64,000 bases of DNA from a virus (Duplodnaviria > Caudoviricetes): positions 1 to 64,000 of IMG/VR virus record IMGVR_UViG_3300037067_015007, one strand, 5' to 3'. Each line of letters opens with the position of its first letter. Positions within the stretch are counted from its first letter, which is position 1. Shown piece after piece: positions 11,469 through 63,125 of the stretch. A program made the translations under genes and the position numbers. A model generated the notes under the pieces. The model searched no databases. It was not told where the DNA came from and was given only the letters and a program-made list of their open reading frames with translations.

Positions 11469-11567
11469 CTTTAACCTCTTCTACAAGTTAGAATTTTAGT
11501 GAGATAATTCAAAGTGGTAGAAGCACTTTGAAAAGGTAGCGAACCCTGTCTCTCACTATTATTTATT
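11469..11567 (-). ncRNA. endonuclease-associated pseudoknotted leader RNA, copy 1
   Basis: P1 UAGUGAGA/UCUCACUA, P3 CAAAGUG/CACUUUG, loop CUUCUAC pairs with GUAGAAG at the SD. Confidence 0.8.
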
Positions 11568-12929
11568 GTTTTCATAATATCTATTCATCCTTTTGTTTAA
11601 AATAATTTTTTTATTAATTTTAGATATTTTTTCAAATTTTTCCTTGGTGTCTGCTGTTGATAAAAATTTAAAAATTGCGTCTAAGACAAAATGATTTGTC
11701 CAATATAAATTCGTTAATTGAGTTGTTTCCTTATTGCGAAAATCTTTCCTGATATTTAATCTTCTTTCAATCATTATTTGTGTGGGTTGAGTTATTTTAA
11801 ATTTATCCTCAATATTTTTTCTTGATGGATTTTTTTCCTGCCATAGATACCATTCATAGAAAGGGTCAAAAAATTCCAACCTTCTCTGCTTGATGTATTC
11901 CAACAAAAATGTGATATCAACCTCAATCATTTTGTCGGATGTACTACTCAATGAATCGGTAAATTTTTGAGTTAGTGAACGAACTTTGTTAACCTCTGTA
12001 GTTTGTTCTAAAGTTCCAATCAAATTCAAATTTTTTAGAGTTTTAAAATGTCTTTCAAAATCAATATCAAGTTCTTTCCATTTTTTCTGAAGTAGTTTTA
12101 AATCAAAGGTGAGAGACTTACCTAACAGATAAGTCATAATAAGGTCGCCTGGTTTTTCTTGTTGCATTAGAATATCTAACACATATTTTAACACACTCTG
12201 TTTTAATTTAGGTTGATATTTTACCTGTTCAAAAATTTTCTCATAAATTGAATATTGCCAATCGTCTAATTTTTTCCAAGTCTTATCATTCTTGACAGGC
12301 GGCAACTCTTTCAATATTGGTGGTTTGATGAAGTTTTTATAGAGGAAGGAACTTTTTAAAAATCCTCTATCCATTTCTCTAGAATGGTTCCAATCAAAAT
12401 AAACCTTTTCATCATCGTATGATGTCATATCAGTATAAGTCAAGATGTAATTAATTTCATTTTGATAAAAAGCACACCATTCTGACATTTTGCATGTGCT
12501 TTCACACCGCAAATTTTTTCGTAATTCATTATCTTCTTTTATCCATTCTCTATATTCAGGAGTTTGTTCATAAGTTGGTTCTTTGGATAGGTGTTTATGA
12601 ATTTCCCACGAGGCCCGAAGAATTTCTTCCAAATGACTATCTCTACAAAGCCGCTCCGTCATGGGATGATATTTTTCAGGCTTGTCAATATTCTTATCCT
12701 TGAAAATTCTTATTAGTTCCTTTTCAAAACAGGATAAATGAGTAGCCTCATAAAACCTACAACGTTTATATTTCCCCATTTCTGCACATGGTTCGCATTT
12801 GTACTTAATTAATTGAAAATCAGAAAGATAGGGATAGAAGCATGCCTTTTTTATTTTCCTAAGTTGAAACAAGAGTGGTTCCTTGGGGTTCAACAAAAAA
12901 TCGAAACTTTCCCTAAATTTGAAATTCAC
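11559..12929 (-). CDS. hypothetical protein (456 aa, Cys-rich N-terminus)
   Basis: long ORF behind an early promoter. Confidence 0.75.
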   Translation of the reverse strand: MNFKFRESFDFLLNPKEPLLFQLRKIKKACFYPYLSDFQLIKYKCEPCAEMGKYKRCRFYEATHLSCFEKELIRIFKDKNIDKPEKYHPMTERLCRDSHLEEILRASWEIHKHLSKEPTYEQTPEYREWIKEDNELRKNLRCESTCKMSEWCAFYQNEINYILTYTDMTSYDDEKVYFDWNHSREMDRGFLKSSFLYKNFIKPPILKELPPVKNDKTWKKLDDWQYSIYEKIFEQVKYQPKLKQSVLKYVLDILMQQEKPGDLIMTYLLGKSLTFDLKLLQKKWKELDIDFERHFKTLKNLNLIGTLEQTTEVNKVRSLTQKFTDSLSSTSDKMIEVDITFLLEYIKQRRLEFFDPFYEWYLWQEKNPSRKNIEDKFKITQPTQIMIERRLNIRKDFRNKETTQLTNLYWTNHFVLDAIFKFLSTADTKEKFEKISKINKKIILNKRMNRYYENNK

Positions 12930-16427: not shown

Positions 16428-16528
16428 CTTCAACTCCTCACATAAGTTAGATTTATTAGTGAAGTAATCCAAGATGATGTGAGCATCTTGGAAGGGTAGC
16501 GAACCTTGTCCTTCACTAATATTTATTA
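16428..16528 (-). ncRNA. endonuclease-associated pseudoknotted leader RNA, copy 2
   Basis: P1 UAGUGAAG/CUUCACUA, P3 CAAGAUG/CAUCUUG, loop CUCACAU pairs with AUGUGAG at the SD. Confidence 0.8.
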
Positions 16529-22552: not shown

Positions 22553-23218
22553 TCACCTACTGTTATTTAGTGTTTTATTACTTTTCATTAAATTTTCCCC
22601 CGCCCATAAAGGTTGAAGATTTGTGTAATGACATGCTTTTAGAAACTCTTTCCTGTTTTGAAGATTGAAAGAGTCTAAAGGTATAATGTGGTCAATATGC
22701 CATCCATAAAATCCGTAGTTATCCCAATTCATACCCTCTTTCCATTTAGATTCCAAATAAGTTTTGAATTCAGGAATAGAACATCCGAGGTCTTTAACTG
22801 CGGAGCCTGATTTTTGATTATTTTTTATTGCTAAACGAATTCTGCTTCTTAAATAATGAGCGAGTTTAAAATGAATATCAGTTTTTAGTTTATTATTAAT
22901 TTGTGTATATATTTTTTCTTTATTATTTTGATAATATTTCTTTTTTTCTATTTTTATTTTCTCTTTGTTGTTTTGCCGATATAATTTTTTTCTATTTTTT
23001 ATCTCTTTTTTATGATTTTCATAATATTTTGTTTCTTGTATAATTATCTCTTTTTTATGATTTTCATAATATTTTTTTTGACGTTCTTTTTGTCTTTTTA
23101 ATTTTTCTTCTTTAGATAATGTTATTCGGGGTAAAATTCCTTTTTTTCTACGATATTTTTCTCTTCTTTTCTTTATTGCTTCTTTTCTTTCTTCATCAGT
23201 AAAGTATTTTTTCTTCAC
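22553..23218 (-). CDS. HNH homing endonuclease
   Basis: WHIDHIIPL...CHYTNLQPLW..EN; KKYYENHK repeats in N-terminus; GTG start after GGAGG. Confidence 0.9.
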   Translation of the reverse strand: MKKKYFTDEERKEAIKKRREKYRRKKGILPRITLSKEEKLKRQKERQKKYYENHKKEIIIQETKYYENHKKEIKNRKKLYRQNNKEKIKIEKKKYYQNNKEKIYTQINNKLKTDIHFKLAHYLRSRIRLAIKNNQKSGSAVKDLGCSIPEFKTYLESKWKEGMNWDNYGFYGWHIDHIIPLDSFNLQNRKEFLKACHYTNLQPLWAGENLMKSNKTLNNSR

Positions 23219-23320
23219 TTTAACCTCCACCAAAGTTTAGTTAGTGTAGGTAATCCGAAAAGTGGTGGCTTTTCAGAAGGGTAGCAACTCCTTGTCCCTA
23301 CACTATTATTTAGTGTTTTA
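22563..23320 (-). mobile_element. leader RNA + HNH cassette bounded by a 15-bp direct repeat
   Basis: TAAAACACTAAATAA at 23306-23320 and 22563-22577. Confidence 0.55.
23219..23314 (-). ncRNA. endonuclease-associated pseudoknotted leader RNA, copy 3
   Basis: P1 UAGUGUAGG/CCUACACUA, P3 GAAAAG/CUUUUC, loop CCACCA pairs with UGGUGG at the SD. Confidence 0.8.
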
Positions 23321-26926: not shown

Positions 26927-27640
26927 ATGGGAACAATATATATAGCAACTAACTTGACAAATCAAAAGCAATATGTGGGTAGAACTGTACAAAATTTTAA
27001 AAATAGGAAAAATAGTCATATAAAATTGAGCAAAGAAGAAAATCCAAAATTCTTTTTTCATAAGGCTATTAAAAAATATGGAGTAGATTCTTTTAAATGG
27101 ATATGTATAGAATATCCCAAAAAAGAGTTGAATGAAATGGAGATGTTTTGGATAAAGACTTTGGGCACAAAGGCACCAAATGGTTACAATTTAACTGACG
27201 GTGGAGAAGGTACTTTCAACCCATCAAAAATAACAAGAATGAAAATGAGTGAAAAAAGAAAAGGTATGTATGAAGGAGAAAAAAATCCTTTTTTCGGTAA
27301 ACATCATTCTACTGAAGTTTGCCAATTTTTATCTGATATCAATAAAGGTGAAAATCATCCGCATTGGGGTAAAAAACATTCTGAAAAAACCAAGCAACTA
27401 CAATCTTTAAATATAAAAAATCATCCACAAAGAAAAGAGATAAATGAAAAAATAAGAAAAGCCAAGTTAAAAATGTTCAAATTCCTATCTCCTAAAGGAA
27501 AAGAAGTTATTTGGAAAAATGGTATCAATAAATTTTGTGAATATTATCAACTAAACTATCATAGTATTTGTGCTATTATGAGCAATCATTGGAAACGAAC
27601 CGAATATAAAGGTTGGAAGTTTTTAGGGATGGTAGAATAA
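26927..27640 (+). CDS. GIY-YIG homing endonuclease with NUMOD3 repeats
   Basis: GTIYIATN...YVGRT, PNGYNLTDGGEG, NPFFGKHH; no leader RNA upstream. Confidence 0.9.
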   Translation: MGTIYIATNLTNQKQYVGRTVQNFKNRKNSHIKLSKEENPKFFFHKAIKKYGVDSFKWICIEYPKKELNEMEMFWIKTLGTKAPNGYNLTDGGEGTFNPSKITRMKMSEKRKGMYEGEKNPFFGKHHSTEVCQFLSDINKGENHPHWGKKHSEKTKQLQSLNIKNHPQRKEINEKIRKAKLKMFKFLSPKGKEVIWKNGINKFCEYYQLNYHSICAIMSNHWKRTEYKGWKFLGMVE

Positions 27641-34230: not shown

Positions 34231-35148
34231 ATGGAACAACCAAAAAATTTACAACAAATTGCGAAGGAAAAGGCTCAGGCGCAGATGCCTAATGCCCCAA
34301 CCCCCGCACCTACAGTTCCCAACGTGGAAGCTGAGGGGATGGAAAAGTTAAATGCTTTACCATCCAATCACATCATGAATGTTATCAGGTCGTTGAAGGA
34401 AAACCAAACAAGACCGACCGTATGGTTTGATTTTGAATTACCTTCAAATGGGAAATGCGGTTATCCGAAAGACATCAAATTGAGGGAGTTAACAACTGAA
34501 GATGAGAAAATTCTTATCAAAGAAATGTTTGCTTCAAAGGACAATTCACTCTTGGATGTTATCAAAAAATGTGCCAAGTTTGAGACCATGCCGAACTTCG
34601 ATTTTGAAAACTTGACGAATTTTGACCAAGACTTCATTATTATTGAATTGTCGGCAATCACTTTCCCAGGTGAAAAAGACATCACCATTACGGATGATAA
34701 GAACCACAAAATCGGAATCAAATTGAACAAGGAAGATTTATCTTTTACTCCTGTTCCTGCCGATTTAGAATATCCGTTAAAAGTGGTCTTGCCTTCAACT
34801 AAAATCGAGTGGTATCTCAATTTTATTACTTTGAAAAAAGTGAAAGAAATTGATAAGGCTGTAAAGTCTTTATCTGCCGATGTCTTGACCCGCTTGCTCG
34901 TTTCTATTGCTCTTTCAACAGAGAAAATAGAGAAAAACAATCAACCGATTACGTCTGAAAACTTTTATGAACTCGTAAAGTTGCTTGACAGCCTTCCCCC
35001 GACAGATTTGAAAAAAATCATCGACTCGTATAATGAAATGAGTGAAGCGTATGGTTATAAACTGACCAAAGACTATTACTGCACCGAATGCGGTAAGGGA
35101 GGGCAGATGGAGCTTGAACCGCTCAACTTTTTTCGGATTACAATATAA
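34231..35148 (+). CDS. baseplate hub / tail assembly chaperone (T4 gp26-like)
   Basis: LPS.G, I.LRE.T..DEKIL, C-terminal CTECG...LNFF. Confidence 0.7.
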   Translation: MEQPKNLQQIAKEKAQAQMPNAPTPAPTVPNVEAEGMEKLNALPSNHIMNVIRSLKENQTRPTVWFDFELPSNGKCGYPKDIKLRELTTEDEKILIKEMFASKDNSLLDVIKKCAKFETMPNFDFENLTNFDQDFIIIELSAITFPGEKDITITDDKNHKIGIKLNKEDLSFTPVPADLEYPLKVVLPSTKIEWYLNFITLKKVKEIDKAVKSLSADVLTRLLVSIALSTEKIEKNNQPITSENFYELVKLLDSLPPTDLKKIIDSYNEMSEAYGYKLTKDYYCTECGKGGQMELEPLNFFRITI

Positions 35149-35341
35149 CGCTTCAAAACTAGTCAGTCGCTACAAGGATTTATTGACGGAAGTTTTTAAC
35201 CTTAGTTATTTGGGGCATTTAGGCGGTATTAACGATATTTTTGCTTTATCAGTAAACGATAGAATCATATTTTTAGATATTTTGAATAAGACGCTAAATG
35301 CAGAGAAAAATAGTCAAAACGCTATACAACAAATACGATAA
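35114..35341 (+). CDS. small tail assembly ORF (gp51-like or frameshift extension)
   Basis: overlaps the previous gene across TTTTTTC; no internal ATG. Confidence 0.5.
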   Translation: MNRSTFFGLQYNASKLVSRYKDLLTEVFNLSYLGHLGGINDIFALSVNDRIIFLDILNKTLNAEKNSQNAIQQIR

Positions 35342-35342
35342 C

Positions 35343-35441
35343 AATAAATAGTAGTGAAGGACAGGGCTGACGAGCCTTTTTGAGATGCCTTAATCATTTC
35401 AAATTACTTCATTTATATTTTGACCGATTAAGGAGGGCAAA
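35343..35441 (+). ncRNA. endonuclease-associated pseudoknotted leader RNA, copy 4
   Basis: P1 AGUGAAG/CUUCAUU, P2 GGCU-GACG-AGCC, P3 UUGAGAUG/CAUUUCAA, loop CCUUAAU pairs with AUUAAGG at the SD. Confidence 0.75.
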
Positions 35442-36011
35442 ATGAATTATAAACATCTTACTGAAGAAGAAAGAAAACAATCAAAACAAAGAAGAAATCA
35501 TAGATATTATGAAAATAATAAAAAAAAGATAATTATAGAAGTAAAAAAATATCGTAAAAAACATAAAGAAATTTTACAGAAGTACAGTAAAAATTATTAT
35601 CAAACTCATAAAAAGGAAATAAATACTAATCATAAAAATTATCGTGAAAATCATAGAAAAGAAATGTCCAAATATATTGTAAATAGATTAAAAACAGACA
35701 TAAATTTTAAACTTGCCCATAATTTACGAAATAGATTGAGAAAGGCTTTACATCGTAACCAAAAATCGGGTTCCGCAGTTGGAGATTTAGGTTGTTCTAT
35801 TTCTGCCCTCAAAACATATTTAGAATCCAAGTTTCAAGAGGGAATGGCTTGGGAGAATTGGAGTAAAACAGGTTGGCATATAGACCATATTATACCTTTG
35901 GATTCATTCAATCTTCAAAATAGGGAAGAATTTCTAAAGGCTTGTCATTACACAAATCTTCAACCACTTTGGGCTGAAGAGAATATTACTAAAGGAAACA
36001 ATTTATTATAA
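35442..36011 (+). CDS. HNH homing endonuclease
   Basis: WHIDHIIPLDSFNLQNREEFLKACHYTNLQPLWAEEN. Confidence 0.9.
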   Translation: MNYKHLTEEERKQSKQRRNHRYYENNKKKIIIEVKKYRKKHKEILQKYSKNYYQTHKKEINTNHKNYRENHRKEMSKYIVNRLKTDINFKLAHNLRNRLRKALHRNQKSGSAVGDLGCSISALKTYLESKFQEGMAWENWSKTGWHIDHIIPLDSFNLQNREEFLKACHYTNLQPLWAEENITKGNNLL

Positions 36012-36064
36012 TAAATAATATTGAAAAGGATTTTCTCTTTCACTTTCAATAAGGATTTCACAAT

Positions 36065-39991: not shown

Positions 39992-40000
39992 CATGAAAAC

Positions 40001-40103
40001 AATAAATAATAGTGTAGGGACAAGGAGTAATTACCCATTCAGAATACCTCGTATATTCTGGATTACCTACACTATTTTAATAATTTTACGAGGGGGTTAT
40101 TGA
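40001..40103 (+). ncRNA. endonuclease-associated pseudoknotted leader RNA, copy 5
   Basis: P1 UAGUGUAGG/CCUACACUA, P3 CAGAAUA/UAUUCUG, loop CCUCGUA pairs with UACGAGG at the SD. Confidence 0.8.
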
Positions 40104-40685
40104 ATGTCAATACAAAAATATTTTACTAAAGAAGAAAGAAGAATTGCACACAATAAAACTAATGAAAAATATCGTAGAAGTAAAGAAATAGTAGCAAGAA
40201 AAAAATTCAATACGGAAAATGAAAGAATAGCAGCAGGAATAGAATATCAAAAACAATATTATCAAAACCACAAGAAAGAAAAATTAAAAAAAGAAAAAGA
40301 ATATCGTAAAAATCATAAAGAAGAAAGAAATTTATGGGCAAGAAAACATGATAATGAAAAATATGAAACGAATATTAAGTTTAAACTTGCTAAAATTTTA
40401 CGAAGTAGAATGCGTTTGGCAATTCACAATAATCAAAGAGCAGGTTCAGCAGTTCGAGACCTTGGATGTTCTATTCCTGAATTAAAAATATATTTAGAGA
40501 ATAAATTTCAAGAAGGAATGACTTGGGAAAATTGGAAACATAATGGTTGGCATATTGACCACGTTATTCCCTTGGATAACTTCAATCTTCAGAACAGGGA
40601 AGAGTTTCTAAAAGCATGTCATTACACTAATCTTCAACCTTTGTGGGCTGAAGAAAATTTAAGTAAACATAATAAGGTGATATAA
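40104..40685 (+). CDS. HNH homing endonuclease
   Basis: WHIDHVIPL...CHYTNLQPLWAEEN. Confidence 0.9.
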   Translation: MSIQKYFTKEERRIAHNKTNEKYRRSKEIVARKKFNTENERIAAGIEYQKQYYQNHKKEKLKKEKEYRKNHKEERNLWARKHDNEKYETNIKFKLAKILRSRMRLAIHNNQRAGSAVRDLGCSIPELKIYLENKFQEGMTWENWKHNGWHIDHVIPLDNFNLQNREEFLKACHYTNLQPLWAEENLSKHNKVI

Positions 40686-50930: not shown

Positions 50931-50942
50931 TATGATAAAAAC

Positions 50943-51039
50943 AATAAATAATAGTGTAGGGACAAGGAGTAGCTACCCTTTCAAGATGCCTGTTCATCTT
51001 GGATTACCTACACTATTTTTGACCGAACAGGAGGGCAAA
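50943..51039 (+). ncRNA. endonuclease-associated pseudoknotted leader RNA, copy 6
   Basis: P1 UAGUGUAGG/CCUACACUA, P3 CAAGAUG/CAUCUUG, loop CCUGUU(C) pairs with GAACAGG at the SD. Confidence 0.8.
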
Positions 51040-51639
51040 ATGGAAGAAGTAAAAAATATTATTTACAAAGCAAAGAATGAAGAAAGAAAATGTTTTTATG
51101 TTGGAAAATCTGTTTATGGATTAACTGCAAGAAAACATCAGCATAAACATCGATGTTTTAAGACGAATTCAAATTATAAACTTTACAATTTTATCCGAAA
51201 ATACGGTTGGGATACTTTTACTTGGGAAATATTAGCAGTTTATTCCACACCTGAAGAACTACCACAAGCAGAGATAGATTGGTTAGTAGAACAAAAGAAA
51301 GAGTTTTCGGATTGGAAGTGTTTGAATTTGACAGATGGTGGAGATGGAAATTTAGGATGGAAACCTTCGGAAGAAATAAAAAGAAAAATTAGTGTTTCTA
51401 ATAAAGGAGAAAAAAATCATAATTTTGGGAAAACAATGACAAAAACACAAAAAGAAAAAATAGGTAAAAAATTAAAAGGCCGAATATTATCTAAAAAAAC
51501 AAGAGAAAAAATGTCAAATTCAAAAAAAGGTAAAAATAATCCTATGTTTGGAATCCATCGTTTTGGGGAAAATGCTCCTAATTTTGGTCGTTTGAGAACT
51601 GATGTATCCACTTTGGAGAGAATAAAAAATGCCTGTTAA
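51040..51639 (+). CDS. GIY-YIG homing endonuclease with NUMOD3 repeats
   Basis: IIYKA.N.....YVGKS, E..W, NLTDGGDG, NPMFG. Confidence 0.85.
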   Translation: MEEVKNIIYKAKNEERKCFYVGKSVYGLTARKHQHKHRCFKTNSNYKLYNFIRKYGWDTFTWEILAVYSTPEELPQAEIDWLVEQKKEFSDWKCLNLTDGGDGNLGWKPSEEIKRKISVSNKGEKNHNFGKTMTKTQKEKIGKKLKGRILSKKTREKMSNSKKGKNNPMFGIHRFGENAPNFGRLRTDVSTLERIKNAC

Positions 51640-54518: not shown

Positions 54519-55136
54519 ATGTGGGGATTTATTTACGCTTATACCATAAAAAATAAAAAATATATTGGTCAGGCTATTAATTTAAAAGATAGAATGAAAA
54601 AACATTTTAAAGAAACAGCAAATCCTTATTTCCATAATTCTTTACGAAAATATTTTAAACCTGGCGATTTTCGTATTTTGGAAGCACATTATGATACTCC
54701 TGAAAAACTTAAAATTTTATTAGATAATAGAGAAATTTTTTGGATTGATAAATTAAATACTTATGACCCTAAACAAAAAACAGGTTGGAATTTGACGAAA
54801 GGTGGTAATGGACAGTTAGGATGGGTGCCTAATGAAAAAACAAGAAAAAAAATGTCAGATATTAAAATAGGTAAACCCACATGGAGTAAGGGCCAAAAAT
54901 TTACCACAAAACACAAAGAAAATATTTCAAAAAATCATGCAAATGTTGCTAATGAAAATAATCCACGGGCGAAATCAGTTATATTAATCTCTCCAAATAA
55001 TGAAAAATATCAATTAGAATGTTATGCTCCTTTTTGTAAAAAAAATAAATTAAGTCCAGCGTCTATTTGTTTTGTTCTTCAGGGAAAACAAAAACATCAT
55101 AAAGGATGGACAGGGAATTATATAAATGCAAGGTAA
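54519..55136 (+). CDS. GIY-YIG homing endonuclease
   Basis: GFIYAY...KKYIGQA, RE..WI, GWNLTKGG; no leader RNA upstream. Confidence 0.85.
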   Translation: MWGFIYAYTIKNKKYIGQAINLKDRMKKHFKETANPYFHNSLRKYFKPGDFRILEAHYDTPEKLKILLDNREIFWIDKLNTYDPKQKTGWNLTKGGNGQLGWVPNEKTRKKMSDIKIGKPTWSKGQKFTTKHKENISKNHANVANENNPRAKSVILISPNNEKYQLECYAPFCKKNKLSPASICFVLQGKQKHHKGWTGNYINAR

Positions 55137-56812: not shown

Positions 56813-56910
56813 TAATAAATAGTAGTGTAGGGACAGGGAGTCATGACCCTTTCAAGATGTCCACTCATCCTGAATTACCTACACTATATTTTGACCAAGT
56901 GGAGGGGCAA
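56813..56910 (+). ncRNA. endonuclease-associated pseudoknotted leader RNA, copy 7
   Basis: P1 UAGUGUAGG/CCUACACUA, P3 CAAGAUG/CAUCCUG, loop UCCACU pairs with AGUGGA at the SD. Confidence 0.8.
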
Positions 56911-57456
56911 ATGGATAATCAAAACGGAACGATTTATATAGCCACCAATCTAATCAATAGAAAGCAATATGTGGGGCAAACTATTAGAACTTTGAAAGAA
57001 AGAATAAACTGTCATAAATCTTCTCTTTCTTATTGTTTTGGAAATGCTATCAAAAAATACGGAATTCAAAATTTTAAATGGGTTCCTATTGAATATCCTA
57101 TTGAAGAATTAGATAAAATGGAGTGTTTTTGGATTCAAACACTAAACACCATTAGGCCTAATGGATATAATTTACAATATGGTGGACAAAAATCTCATTC
57201 TTATTCAGAAGAATTAAAAAGAAAAATGAGAGAAAATCATACAGATTATTCAGGAAAAAATCACCCTCGTTTTGGTTTACATTGGGATGAAGAACACAAA
57301 CAAAATCAAAGTAAAAAATTAAAAGGTAGGTTTATAGGTGAAAAAAATCCTAATTTTGGCAATAAATGGACACAAGAACAAAAAGATGCATTGAGTAAGA
57401 AAAAGAAAGAAATGCATCAAAATAAGATACAAAGAATAAATAATATAGAGGAGTAA
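56911..57456 (+). CDS. GIY-YIG homing endonuclease with NUMOD3 repeats
   Basis: GTIYIATN.IN.KQYVGQT, PNGYN, NPNFG. Confidence 0.9.
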   Translation: MDNQNGTIYIATNLINRKQYVGQTIRTLKERINCHKSSLSYCFGNAIKKYGIQNFKWVPIEYPIEELDKMECFWIQTLNTIRPNGYNLQYGGQKSHSYSEELKRKMRENHTDYSGKNHPRFGLHWDEEHKQNQSKKLKGRFIGEKNPNFGNKWTQEQKDALSKKKKEMHQNKIQRINNIEE

Positions 57457-59795: not shown

Positions 59796-60338
59796 ATGAA
59801 AAAGAAATATTTTACAGAAGAAGAAAAAATAATTGCTAAAAAAGAATATCAAAAGAAGTATAAAAAAACGCATAAAGAAGAAAGAAAAAAATATGATAAA
59901 AAGTATTGTCAAAATCACAAAGAAAATATAGCCATAAAGAAGAAAGAATATTATGAAAACCATAAAGAAAAAACAAATATATATCAAAAAGAATATAGAA
60001 ATAATAGATTAAAAAAAGATATTAATTTTAGAATGATTTGCTATTTACGAAGTAGAATGTATTGGTCAATTAGAGGAAACTATAAATCAGGCTCCGCAGT
60101 CAGAGACCTCGGTTGTCCTATTTCTGAATTTAAGACCTATATAGAATCAAAGTTCCAAGACGGAATGACTTGGGAAAATTGGAGTAAAACGGGTTGGCAT
60201 ATAGACCATATTATACCTTTAGATTCTTTCAATCTTCAGAATAGGGAAGAATTTCTAAAAGCCTGTCATTATACAAATCTTCAACCTATGTGGGCTGAAG
60301 AGAATTTGAGAAAAGGGGGTAAAGTATGCCGAACATAA
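59796..60338 (+). CDS. HNH homing endonuclease
   Basis: WHIDHIIPLDSFNLQNREEFLKACHYTNLQPMWAEEN; no leader RNA upstream. Confidence 0.9.
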   Translation: MKKKYFTEEEKIIAKKEYQKKYKKTHKEERKKYDKKYCQNHKENIAIKKKEYYENHKEKTNIYQKEYRNNRLKKDINFRMICYLRSRMYWSIRGNYKSGSAVRDLGCPISEFKTYIESKFQDGMTWENWSKTGWHIDHIIPLDSFNLQNREEFLKACHYTNLQPMWAEENLRKGGKVCRT

Positions 60339-61165
60339 ATGCCCGTGAAATCATGGGGCTAGGAGCCGTATCAGGAATATCAGGATACAGCGGAAAAGTT
60401 GGAACATCAGGATATTCAGGAATTTCAGGAATATCAGGATGGAGTGGGGAAAATCCTGGTGCATCGGGACTTTCAGGATATAGTGCATGGTCAGGATTTT
60501 CAGGAATAAGTGCATGGTCAGGATTTTCAGGAATAAGTGCATGGTCAGGATTTTCAGGAGCAACAGGGGCATCAGGTTTTTCAGGAGTAGCAAGCGCAGC
60601 AACTTCAGGATGGTCTGGACCAAGTGGATTTTCAGGTTACTCAGGTAAAAGTGGATTCAGCGGCTACTCAGGTGTCTCAGGATTTTCAGGAGCAGGTACA
60701 AGTGGATTTTCTGCATGGAGTGGATATAGTGGATATAGTGGGTATAGTGGTAAAAGTGGGTATAGTGGCCCTTCAGGATATTCAGGCCCAAGCGGATATT
60801 CAAGTATAAGTGGATACAGCGGCCCTTCAGGATTTTCAGGATATAGTGCCGCCAACCTTGGATATTATTCAGCAACTTTTGATGCCTCTGCTTCTTGGTC
60901 AGATGCAACAACTTATTACAGAGTTGATTTTACTCACAATCTTAATTCACAAAAACTTCTCGTTCAAGTTTGGGATGAAACTATTTCACCAGGAAATTCG
61001 GGATATGACCCTGTTCCTGTAGCACCATATTATGAAACACAAACAATTCCTAAACCGTTCCAACTTGTAAAAAGAGGAGCAAATGTTCTCAGATTGCAAG
61101 TAAACCAAACACCAGGAGTTGATGGACGTTTTGCAGGTAGAATTGTTATTGTAAGTGTACCGTAA
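60326..61165 (+). CDS. collagen-like (Gly-X-Ser)n virion protein
   Basis: about 165 aa of SGYSG/SGFSG/SAWSG, then F.HNLN...LVQVWD domain. Confidence 0.8.
   Translation: MPNINAREIMGLGAVSGISGYSGKVGTSGYSGISGISGWSGENPGASGLSGYSAWSGFSGISAWSGFSGISAWSGFSGATGASGFSGVASAATSGWSGPSGFSGYSGKSGFSGYSGVSGFSGAGTSGFSAWSGYSGYSGYSGKSGYSGPSGYSGPSGYSSISGYSGPSGFSGYSAANLGYYSATFDASASWSDATTYYRVDFTHNLNSQKLLVQVWDETISPGNSGYDPVPVAPYYETQTIPKPFQLVKRGANVLRLQVNQTPGVDGRFAGRIVIVSVP
60482..60559 (+). repeat. 27-bp tandem repeat x3
   Basis: agtgcatggtcaggattttcaggaata repeated, encodes SAWSGFSGI. Confidence 0.85.
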
Positions 61166-61515: not shown

Positions 61516-63125
61516 TGAGCAAGAGAATATTTCAAAACTGCGGTAAGGTTTTTACAATAGAAGATAGTGGTCTAATTACCGCAGGAGATACTTCTCAATA
61601 TGACACATTAGTAACAAGCGATAATGATATTCCAAATAAAGCATATGTAGATTCTCATGGTGCTGGTGCATCAGGATGGTCAGGATATTCTGGACCAAGT
61701 GGTTATTCTGGACCAAGTGGGTATTCAGGTATATCAGGATTTTCAAGTCAAAGTGGCTATTCAGGAGTCAGCGGATTTACAGGTTATTCAGGAGTTAGTG
61801 GTTATTCAGGATATTCAGGAGTAAGTGGATATTCAGGATATTCAGGAGTCAGCGGTTATAGTGGAACAAGTGGATATTCAGGCTATTCAGGCGTAAGTGG
61901 TTATTCAGGGGTAAGCGGTTTCTCTGCCTACAGCGGAATAAGTGGATATTCAGGCGTAAGTGGTTATTCAGGTAAAAGTGGATATAGCGGCTACAGCGGG
62001 GCTAGTGGTTTTAGTGGATTGGCTTCAATTGGGGGAGCATATGTTTACACTAAACTAGTTGGTGATGCAAATGCCACTTGGACTATCGTTCATAACTTAG
62101 GTCAACAATATGTTAATGTACAATTAATTAATGGAGCAACAGGAACGGCATTTGATGGAACTTATGATTTTCCAACAATAACTTTTGATAATGCAAACCA
62201 ATTAACAGTTACATTTGGTTCTGCACAATATGGTTGGGCTTCAGTTGTATCAGGCGGCGGCATTAGTGGATACTCAGGTTCAGATGCACAGCAATCAGGA
62301 TATAGCGGTGTTTCAGGATATAGTGGAGTAAGTGGATATAGTGGAGTCTCAGGATTTTCTGGAACAGTAACAAAGGGAAATACAGGAGATTCAGGATATA
62401 GCGGTTATTCAGGGGTCAGCGGTTACAGCGGAGTCAGCGGTTATTCAGGTAAAAGTGGATATAGCGGTTACTCAGGCGTAAGTGGTTACTCTGCATACTC
62501 AGGCGTAAGTGGTTATTCAGGCTATTCAGGGACTAGCGGTTATTCAGGCAAAAGTGGATATAGCGGTTACTCAGGCGTATCAGGCACTTCGGGTTGGAGC
62601 GGTACTTCAGGCACAAAAGGCAATACAGGCGCAACAGGCACATCGGGCTACTCAGGCACATCAGGCGCAAAGGGTGCATCAGGCGCAAAAGGCACATCGG
62701 GCTACTCAGGCACATCTGGATACTCCGGAGTTGGTACTACGACAGGAACTTGGACTCCAACAATTACAGGGGGCACTACAGAAGGAACAACGACTTATAC
62801 TATTCAAGATGGTTATTATATTCAAATAGGAAAATTAGTATATGCAACTTGTAGGGTAACTTGGACAAATGCTACAGGCACAGGCACAATAAAGTTAGAT
62901 GGTCTTCCTGCAACAGTTAAAAATGTTACAAACGGAACGCAAGTTATAACGATATATGCTCAAAGTGGGATTGCACATACTGCGGGAAATTTAATACAAG
63001 GATATTTAGTTCCTAATACAACTTATGGACTTATGACCCAAGTGGATAAAGATGGAGTACTTGATAATTTATATATAGTTACAGCAGGTTCATTCAGACT
63101 TGGGATAACATATTTGGCAGAATAG
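61515..63125 (+). CDS. collagen-like (Gly-X-Ser)n tail fibre
   Basis: two long SGYSGVSGYSG blocks, W.I.HNLG domain, C-terminal GTWTP...Y.QIGKLV fibre domain. Confidence 0.85.
   Translation: MSKRIFQNCGKVFTIEDSGLITAGDTSQYDTLVTSDNDIPNKAYVDSHGAGASGWSGYSGPSGYSGPSGYSGISGFSSQSGYSGVSGFTGYSGVSGYSGYSGVSGYSGYSGVSGYSGTSGYSGYSGVSGYSGVSGFSAYSGISGYSGVSGYSGKSGYSGYSGASGFSGLASIGGAYVYTKLVGDANATWTIVHNLGQQYVNVQLINGATGTAFDGTYDFPTITFDNANQLTVTFGSAQYGWASVVSGGGISGYSGSDAQQSGYSGVSGYSGVSGYSGVSGFSGTVTKGNTGDSGYSGYSGVSGYSGVSGYSGKSGYSGYSGVSGYSAYSGVSGYSGYSGTSGYSGKSGYSGYSGVSGTSGWSGTSGTKGNTGATGTSGYSGTSGAKGASGAKGTSGYSGTSGYSGVGTTTGTWTPTITGGTTEGTTTYTIQDGYYIQIGKLVYATCRVTWTNATGTGTIKLDGLPATVKNVTNGTQVITIYAQSGIAHTAGNLIQGYLVPNTTYGLMTQVDKDGVLDNLYIVTAGSFRLGITYLAE

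Follow-up and report, generated by a model that had tools for sequence, protein, structure and literature searches.

The window analyzed here comprises the first 64 kb (64,000 nucleotides) of an 89,320-bp record of a T4-like virus. On its forward strand, a leader of roughly 100 nt (35342 to 35444) lies between a small conserved open reading frame (ORF), which ends at 35341, and the ATG at 35442 of a homing-endonuclease gene. The features of this leader, referred to below as copy 4, and of its surroundings are as follows.

35343 to 35350, forward strand: late-promoter-like box AATAAATA (in RNA, AAUAAAUA), with TAAATA at 35345 to 35350; 5' edge of the element, near-invariant in 50 copies
35353 to 35359, forward strand: 5' arm of P1, AGUGAAG, which pairs with 35407 to 35413 in the unconstrained fold
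35363 to 35378, forward strand: hairpin P2, AGGGCU/GACG/AGCCUU, 6 bp by RNAfold (35363 to 35368 with 35373 to 35378), loop GACG
35379 to 35403, forward strand: hairpin P3, 9 bp by RNAfold including U35379:A35403, arms 35379 to 35387 and 35395 to 35403
35388 to 35394, forward strand: 7-nt loop of P3, CCUUAAU, a mimic of the anti-Shine-Dalgarno sequence
35407 to 35413, forward strand: 3' arm of P1, CUUCAUU, in the unconstrained fold
35416 to 35444, forward strand: hairpin P4, arms 35416 to 35425 and 35436 to 35444 by RNAfold
35427 to 35433, forward strand: kiss site AUUAAGG, in the loop of P4
35430 to 35436, forward strand: Shine-Dalgarno sequence (SD) AAGGAGG, across the loop and 3' arm of P4
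35442 to 35444, forward strand: start codon AUG, paired into by the base of P4
35442 to 36011, forward strand: HNH-type homing-endonuclease gene, 189 amino acids, matching phrog_1035 ("endonuclease VII") at E = 2.4e-9
36010 to 36017, forward strand: second AATAAATA (AAUAAAUA) box, immediately past the stop codon of the nuclease gene, ahead of the displaced 906-aa gene (36065)

The translation of the nuclease gene shows the HNH motif WHIDHIIP...NLQPL...N, and GenBank phages encode homologues that bear the annotation HNH endonuclease. Genes of the T4_baseplate and gp53 families flank the element, which marks the phage as T4-like. Seven relatives have the baseplate gene, the small ORF, and the 906-aa gene side by side and lack the nuclease; because it is missing at the same site in all seven, the copy 4 gene is a free-standing insertion.

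Two other features of the window are recorded here in their own right. The T4_baseplate-family gene (34231 to 35148) ends ...AAC UUU UUU CGG AUU ACA AUA UAA, and its end is overlapped by a start-less 75-codon ORF in the +1 frame (35114 to 35341), a candidate programmed +1 frameshift. This ORF is conserved behind the homologous gene in 7/7 relatives at 58 to 72% amino acid identity, and the UUU CGG motif is retained in 8/8. Between 56200 and 62800 (e.g., 60371 to 60850 and 61660 to 62600), long 9-nt-periodic repeat arrays, TCAGGATAT-like, encode Gly-X-Y/GYS collagen-like tracts in several large late proteins.

Folded without constraints, copy 4 yields P1 through P4 in RNAfold at -23.7 kcal/mol (z = -2.6), with 5 of 200 shuffles equally stable. 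The SD falls inside this stable RNA structure, the kiss and P4 together covering 35427 to 35444. When the P3 loop of copy 4 was compared with shuffled versions of the 32-nt tail, a perfect 7-bp match appeared in 79 of 10,000 trials (0.8%). By its fold z score and this chance match rate, the evidence from copy 4 on its own is modest, and it is the family of related leaders that is decisive.

A preliminary description had taken this leader for the most divergent copy of a repeated RNA that keeps the shared fold, and both parts of that statement hold. Scored with a covariance model built without it, copy 4 is the lowest of the 11 copies in the genome, at 74.0 bits; its core identity is also the lowest (63%, versus 67 to 76%), and its P2 is only 42% like that of the other copies. 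Unconstrained RNAfold nonetheless gives the same three-way junction as in those copies. The proposed pairings are present as described: P2 contains GGCU/GACG/AGCC (35365 to 35376), P3 pairs UUGAGAUG (35380 to 35387) with CAUUUCAA (35395 to 35402), and the loop CCUUAAU can form Watson-Crick pairs with every base of AUUAAGG, a site overlapping the SD AAGGAGG. The covariance-model check that had been suggested came out in favor of membership, with a model of foreign copies only recovering copy 4 at E = 3.3e-14. Hairpin P4, the late-promoter start of about 17 nt, and the extent of the family beyond four or seven copies had been passed over.

Several properties set copy 4 apart. Its P2 is the most stable of 34 P2 variants (-7.0 kcal/mol) and is unique in sequence within the genome, a near-identical P2 (GGGCUGACGGGCCU) occurring in one metagenome copy, L110. 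Its P1 is a one-pair-shorter variant, GUGAAGG/CUUCA, common to about 20 other copies. Its kiss is the weakest of 49, at -5.0 kcal/mol (range, -11.1 to -5.0; mean, -7.9), and masking by this copy may therefore be leaky. MAFFT alignments misplace its P2 and the 3' arm of its P1; alignments based on covariance models were used instead.

With a covariance model made from four copies, we found 11 leader copies in the 89,320-bp record, seven inside the window and four beyond it. A model (R2) built from 27 metagenome copies only also finds exactly 11 copies in the record, the next-best score, 18.8 bits, being the onset of noise. The six sister copies in the window are as follows.

40000 to 40106, forward strand: heads an HNH gene
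50942 to 51042, forward strand: heads a GIY-YIG gene
56813 to 56913, forward strand: heads a GIY-YIG gene
23216 to 23315, reverse strand: heads an HNH gene with a GUG start
16428 to 16528, reverse strand: heads a GIY-YIG gene
11469 to 11568, reverse strand: heads a GIY-YIG gene

Pattern scans together with the model brought the family, with IMG/VR relatives included, to 50 copies spread over 17 or more IMG/VR contigs, and 26 further distinct copies were found on metagenome contigs. At least 65 copies thus lie outside the record, in contigs of other uncultured phages and metagenomes. Folded alone by RNAfold, all copies form the same junction.

The helices are maintained by compensatory change. 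Across 48 distinct sequences, 91.8% of nested cells are paired, versus 43 to 51% when the partners are slid, and 18 of the 25 nested pairs show compensatory changes. Within the family, such changes occur at 8 of 11 pairs in P1, while P3 is paired in 99.3% of cases with covariation at 8 of its 9 pairs. The same holds for the contact between the P3 loop and the SD region: in 49 of 50 copies, comprising 38 different loops, the loop is fully Watson-Crick complementary to a site overlapping the SD, and the sole exception is a decayed copy that has no SD. None of 640 non-cognate combinations of loop and tail is fully complementary. Among the 26 independent metagenome copies outside the model, the kiss is perfect in 21 and contains a single G.U pair in 3; of the other two, one is perfect with the loop call shifted by one base and one is cut by the end of its contig. 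The covariation includes P4, which forms with the kiss site as its loop in 25 of 27 copies of differing sequence (mean z = -2.5), and the contact is therefore a loop-loop kiss. The family thereby confirms that 35342 to 35444 is a genuine folded RNA leader at the head of a homing-endonuclease gene of an uncultured T4-like phage.

The decayed copy (L036, 8851 to 8951) keeps an intact junction, its kiss is down to 4/7, and neither an SD nor an ORF follows. A nuclease cassette once present there seems to have been lost, leaving this remnant.

Complete ORFs follow 41 of the leaders, and all 41 match nuclease families, of which at least three are unrelated. They comprise 20 GIY-YIG proteins with NUMOD3 (phrog_314, phrog_7168), about 12 of the HNH/endonuclease-VII type (phrog_1035) including the copy 4 gene, 7 of the DUF7487/DUF559 type (phrog_3339), and a few of other HNH types. 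The closest relative of the copy 4 leader, at L028 (1966 to 2069), carries the kiss CCUUAGU/ACUAAGG in place of CCUUAAU/AUUAAGG, a compensatory pair. The L028 leader heads a GIY-YIG gene and copy 4 an HNH gene; therefore, leader and nuclease are separable modules. This pair of sequences indicates that leaders have been exchanged between nuclease families.

The 89-kb record contains 14 nuclease genes, of which 11 have the leader and three do not, a point that counts against the repressive role favored below. The leaderless homing-endonuclease genes (26927 to 27406, 54525 to 54968, and 59802 to 60329) are two GIY-YIG genes and one HNH paralogue of the copy 4 gene, and two of the three overlap the end of the upstream gene.

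What is conserved in the leader is RNA structure and not a peptide, as the preliminary description had also proposed. An ATG or GTG stands just before the TAAATA box in about 40% of copies, and in some of them the reading frame thus opened stops at the nuclease start or continues into it in phase. A short translated leader ORF could in principle melt the structure and couple the nuclease to the upstream gene. In copy 4, however, the frame that has ATG or GTG elsewhere lacks a start, in line with the earlier remark that there is no leader ATG here, and it is stopped by TGA at position 27 of the element. From copy to copy this ORF changes erratically, whereas the helices covary: many other copies have no start, the stop may lie anywhere between positions 27 and 105, and the 3' half, conserved at the nucleotide level, is read in differing frames. 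On account of the missing starts, scattered stops, and inconsistent 3' frames, we rejected a leader peptide, and we regard this explanation as extremely unlikely.

The strand on which the structure acts can be read from the kinds of mismatch that its stems tolerate. G.U pairs outnumber A.C combinations 92 to 14 in the stems and 26 to 2 in P3; therefore, the structure belongs to the sense-strand RNA only. This bias bears on the idea that the element works at the DNA level, as a promoter, a nuclease target, or a recombination site with no RNA function for its hairpins, or else as an antisense RNA. The first 17 nt or so of the element do match the resident late-promoter region at sites of relatives that lack the homing endonuclease, and a second box follows the nuclease gene. 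The G.U excess nevertheless fits sense-strand RNA alone, the P3 loop covaries with the SD region, and we found no signal above shuffles for a sigma-70 promoter or an intrinsic terminator in the element. Taken together, these points leave a purely DNA-level or antisense role with scarcely any probability.

The sites without the nuclease also reveal how the 5' end of the element is composed. In L047 and L048, the promoter region of the 906-aa gene is CAAUAAAUAGUAGUGAAGAC, the very 17 nt with which the copy 4 leader opens, and the TAAATA box also stands before non-nuclease late genes in the window (28832, 34191, 36012, 43801, 50411, and 57437). The 5' end of the element is therefore a late-promoter/initial-transcript consensus of the phage, and by the same sequence identity this consensus would include the 5' arm of P1. 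The late promoter of T4 is TATAAATA, and transcription there begins about 6 nt after it. By analogy, the TAAATA box is probably a late promoter.

In all copies the P1 5' arm follows the box by 2 to 3 nt, so that by the T4 rule transcription would start inside P1. This arrangement raises the possibility of a T4-style temporal switch, in which read-through transcripts carrying the full P1 (11 bp; 7 bp in copy 4) would be locked, whereas transcripts initiated at TAAATA, starting inside the P1 5' arm and folding otherwise, would be translatable late. The same logic has been described for I-TevI, segB, and mobE (PMC2988022). However, the inhibitory P3 loop lies downstream of the box and is present on both transcripts. 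When RNAs were truncated at alignment column 15, the assumed start, they retained P3 and P4 in most of the 11 copies, copy 4 included, and usually 4 to 5 bp of P1 as well, giving no clear switch. We consider a temporal switch of this kind unlikely. As it is not evident, constitutive damping is the simplest reading.

We therefore favor the view that 35342 to 35444 is the 5' leader of the mRNA for the free-standing HNH homing-endonuclease gene (35442 to 36011) and that it probably holds translation low by masking the ribosome-binding site (RBS) and the AUG. In the mechanism that we propose, the RNA would begin at or just past the TAAATA box, and the P1/P2/P3 three-way junction would fold, followed by hairpin P4. 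P3 would be transcribed and folded before the RBS emerges, its loop CCUUAAU serving as a built-in copy of the anti-Shine-Dalgarno tail of 16S rRNA. The emerging SD region would be captured by this loop, through the 7-bp loop-loop kiss with AUUAAGG, and by P4, while the rest of the SD and the AUG would be held in the P4 stem. With RBS and start codon masked, binding of the 30S subunit would be impeded and translation of the nuclease held low in cis. Judging from the modeled fold and from the T4 precedents, such repression in cis is likely. A low dose of nuclease would likely limit self-damage and allow the cassette to be tolerated behind a strong late promoter, and it may be the effect for which the leader is selected.

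Simple masking does not explain every conserved part of the leader. In the junction, GACA and AUUA show more than 90% conservation against a background of freely varying stems and kiss sequences; for the SD, a plain hairpin would suffice. These junction bases and the P1/P2 scaffold leave room for a protein or ligand sensor, and a three-way junction with a loop-loop contact recalls, from general knowledge, ligand-sensing RNAs. The junction might thus be bound by a small ligand, or by a protein of the phage or its host, that would stabilize or open the kiss. Against this, the kiss is already a perfect 6- to 7-bp helix for which no ligand is needed, no candidate partner and no Rfam match came to light, and the conservation of the junction may reflect recent spread of the copies. 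We regard a regulated sensor as quite unlikely.

A compact conserved junction in a phage could alternatively be a self-cleaving ribozyme, or a target of RNase processing, at which the nuclease mRNA is cut away from an upstream late transcript, and copy 4 contains CUGACGAG, which resembles a hammerhead core. No ribozyme family matches the element, however, even at E <= 10, and cleavage or processing of this kind seems to us very unlikely. The CUGACGAG candidate was rejected because it is confined to the variable P2 and absent from other copies. A self-complementary P2 loop as a dimerization site was likewise discarded, since the loop is palindromic in only 25 of 77 copies and not in copy 4.

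Homing endonucleases are selfish: they have to be made in amounts that suffice for spread and yet do not harm the phage. T4 solves this problem of dosage gene by gene with simple hairpins, whereas here a single RNA module serves GIY-YIG, HNH, and DUF7487-type nucleases. The 38 or more naturally covarying pairs of loop and SD constitute a ready-made mutational series, which shows that the contact is under selection. The module itself suggests a testable account of how such cassettes are kept in check and reshuffled among late promoters, and it is a small natural template for translational locks that are programmable and orthogonal.

A more speculative extension, which we hold to be doubtful, would make the leader a plug-in control unit that travels with selfish nuclease cassettes and whose junction sensor opens the kiss at a set time. 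The cassette would then insert behind a resident late promoter, with the promoter-proximal transcribed bases serving as the P1 5' arm, and the private anti-SD/SD addresses (38 or more kiss sequences) would avoid cross talk among 11 mRNAs per cell. The junction would sense a phage factor or ligand; if this were true, the leaders would be regulated RNA switches of a new class, one devoted to mobile nucleases.

The family is uncatalogued; its members, leaders of about 100 nt, precede homing-endonuclease genes of one clade of T4-like phages that have not been cultured. Rfam 15 gives no match in the window at the gathering threshold and nothing relevant at E <= 10 for copy 4 or for 8 copies. By blastn, GenBank phages show no match to the leader and almost none to the region, and full-text literature searches for an endonuclease leader containing a kiss, a pseudoknot, or an anti-SD led only to the work on T4 hairpins. 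The leader merits its own entry in the RNA family catalogue.

Among known structured RNAs, the int-alpA motif (RF02996) is likewise small and structured and occurs near mobile-element genes; it has no match at E <= 10 in the whole 89-kb record or in 24 kb around 8 copies. HEARO, or omega-RNA, the guide RNA of IscB, likewise lies beside an HNH nuclease gene, but it is about 300 nt long, compared with about 100 nt for the leader, which has no Rfam match. In addition, the variable segment of the leader pairs with the SD of its own mRNA and not with a DNA target, and the leader also heads GIY-YIG and DUF7487 genes. Like junctions of the purine-riboswitch type, the leader combines a three-way junction with tertiary pairing between loops, and its control would be exerted at the SD. 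Here, however, the kiss joins an arm of the junction to an external hairpin, there is no similarity in sequence or covariance model, and the pairing needs no ligand.

The closest parallel is with the RBS-sequestering structures that control I-TevI, I-TevII, I-TevIII, and segB of T-even phages and mobE of Aeh1 (PMC2988022). In both cases a T4-like phage carries a homing-endonuclease gene whose SD is buried in stable RNA, with a late-promoter box adjoining, and in both the presumed purpose is to limit or time translation of the nuclease. The T-even structures are simple, gene-specific hairpins, whereas the leader described here is one conserved module of about 100 nt that serves at least three unrelated nuclease families at dozens of loci. 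The anti-SD of the T-even structures is the opposite strand of one stem; here it is the loop of a distant hairpin. In the T4 homing-endonuclease hairpins, the position of the late promoter leaves the inhibitory strand out of late transcripts (PMC2988022). In the present family, the box is upstream of all inhibitory parts, and late transcripts, as predicted from the assumed start, would keep P3, its loop, and P4. The leader is thus a more elaborate variant of RBS sequestration at phage homing-endonuclease genes.
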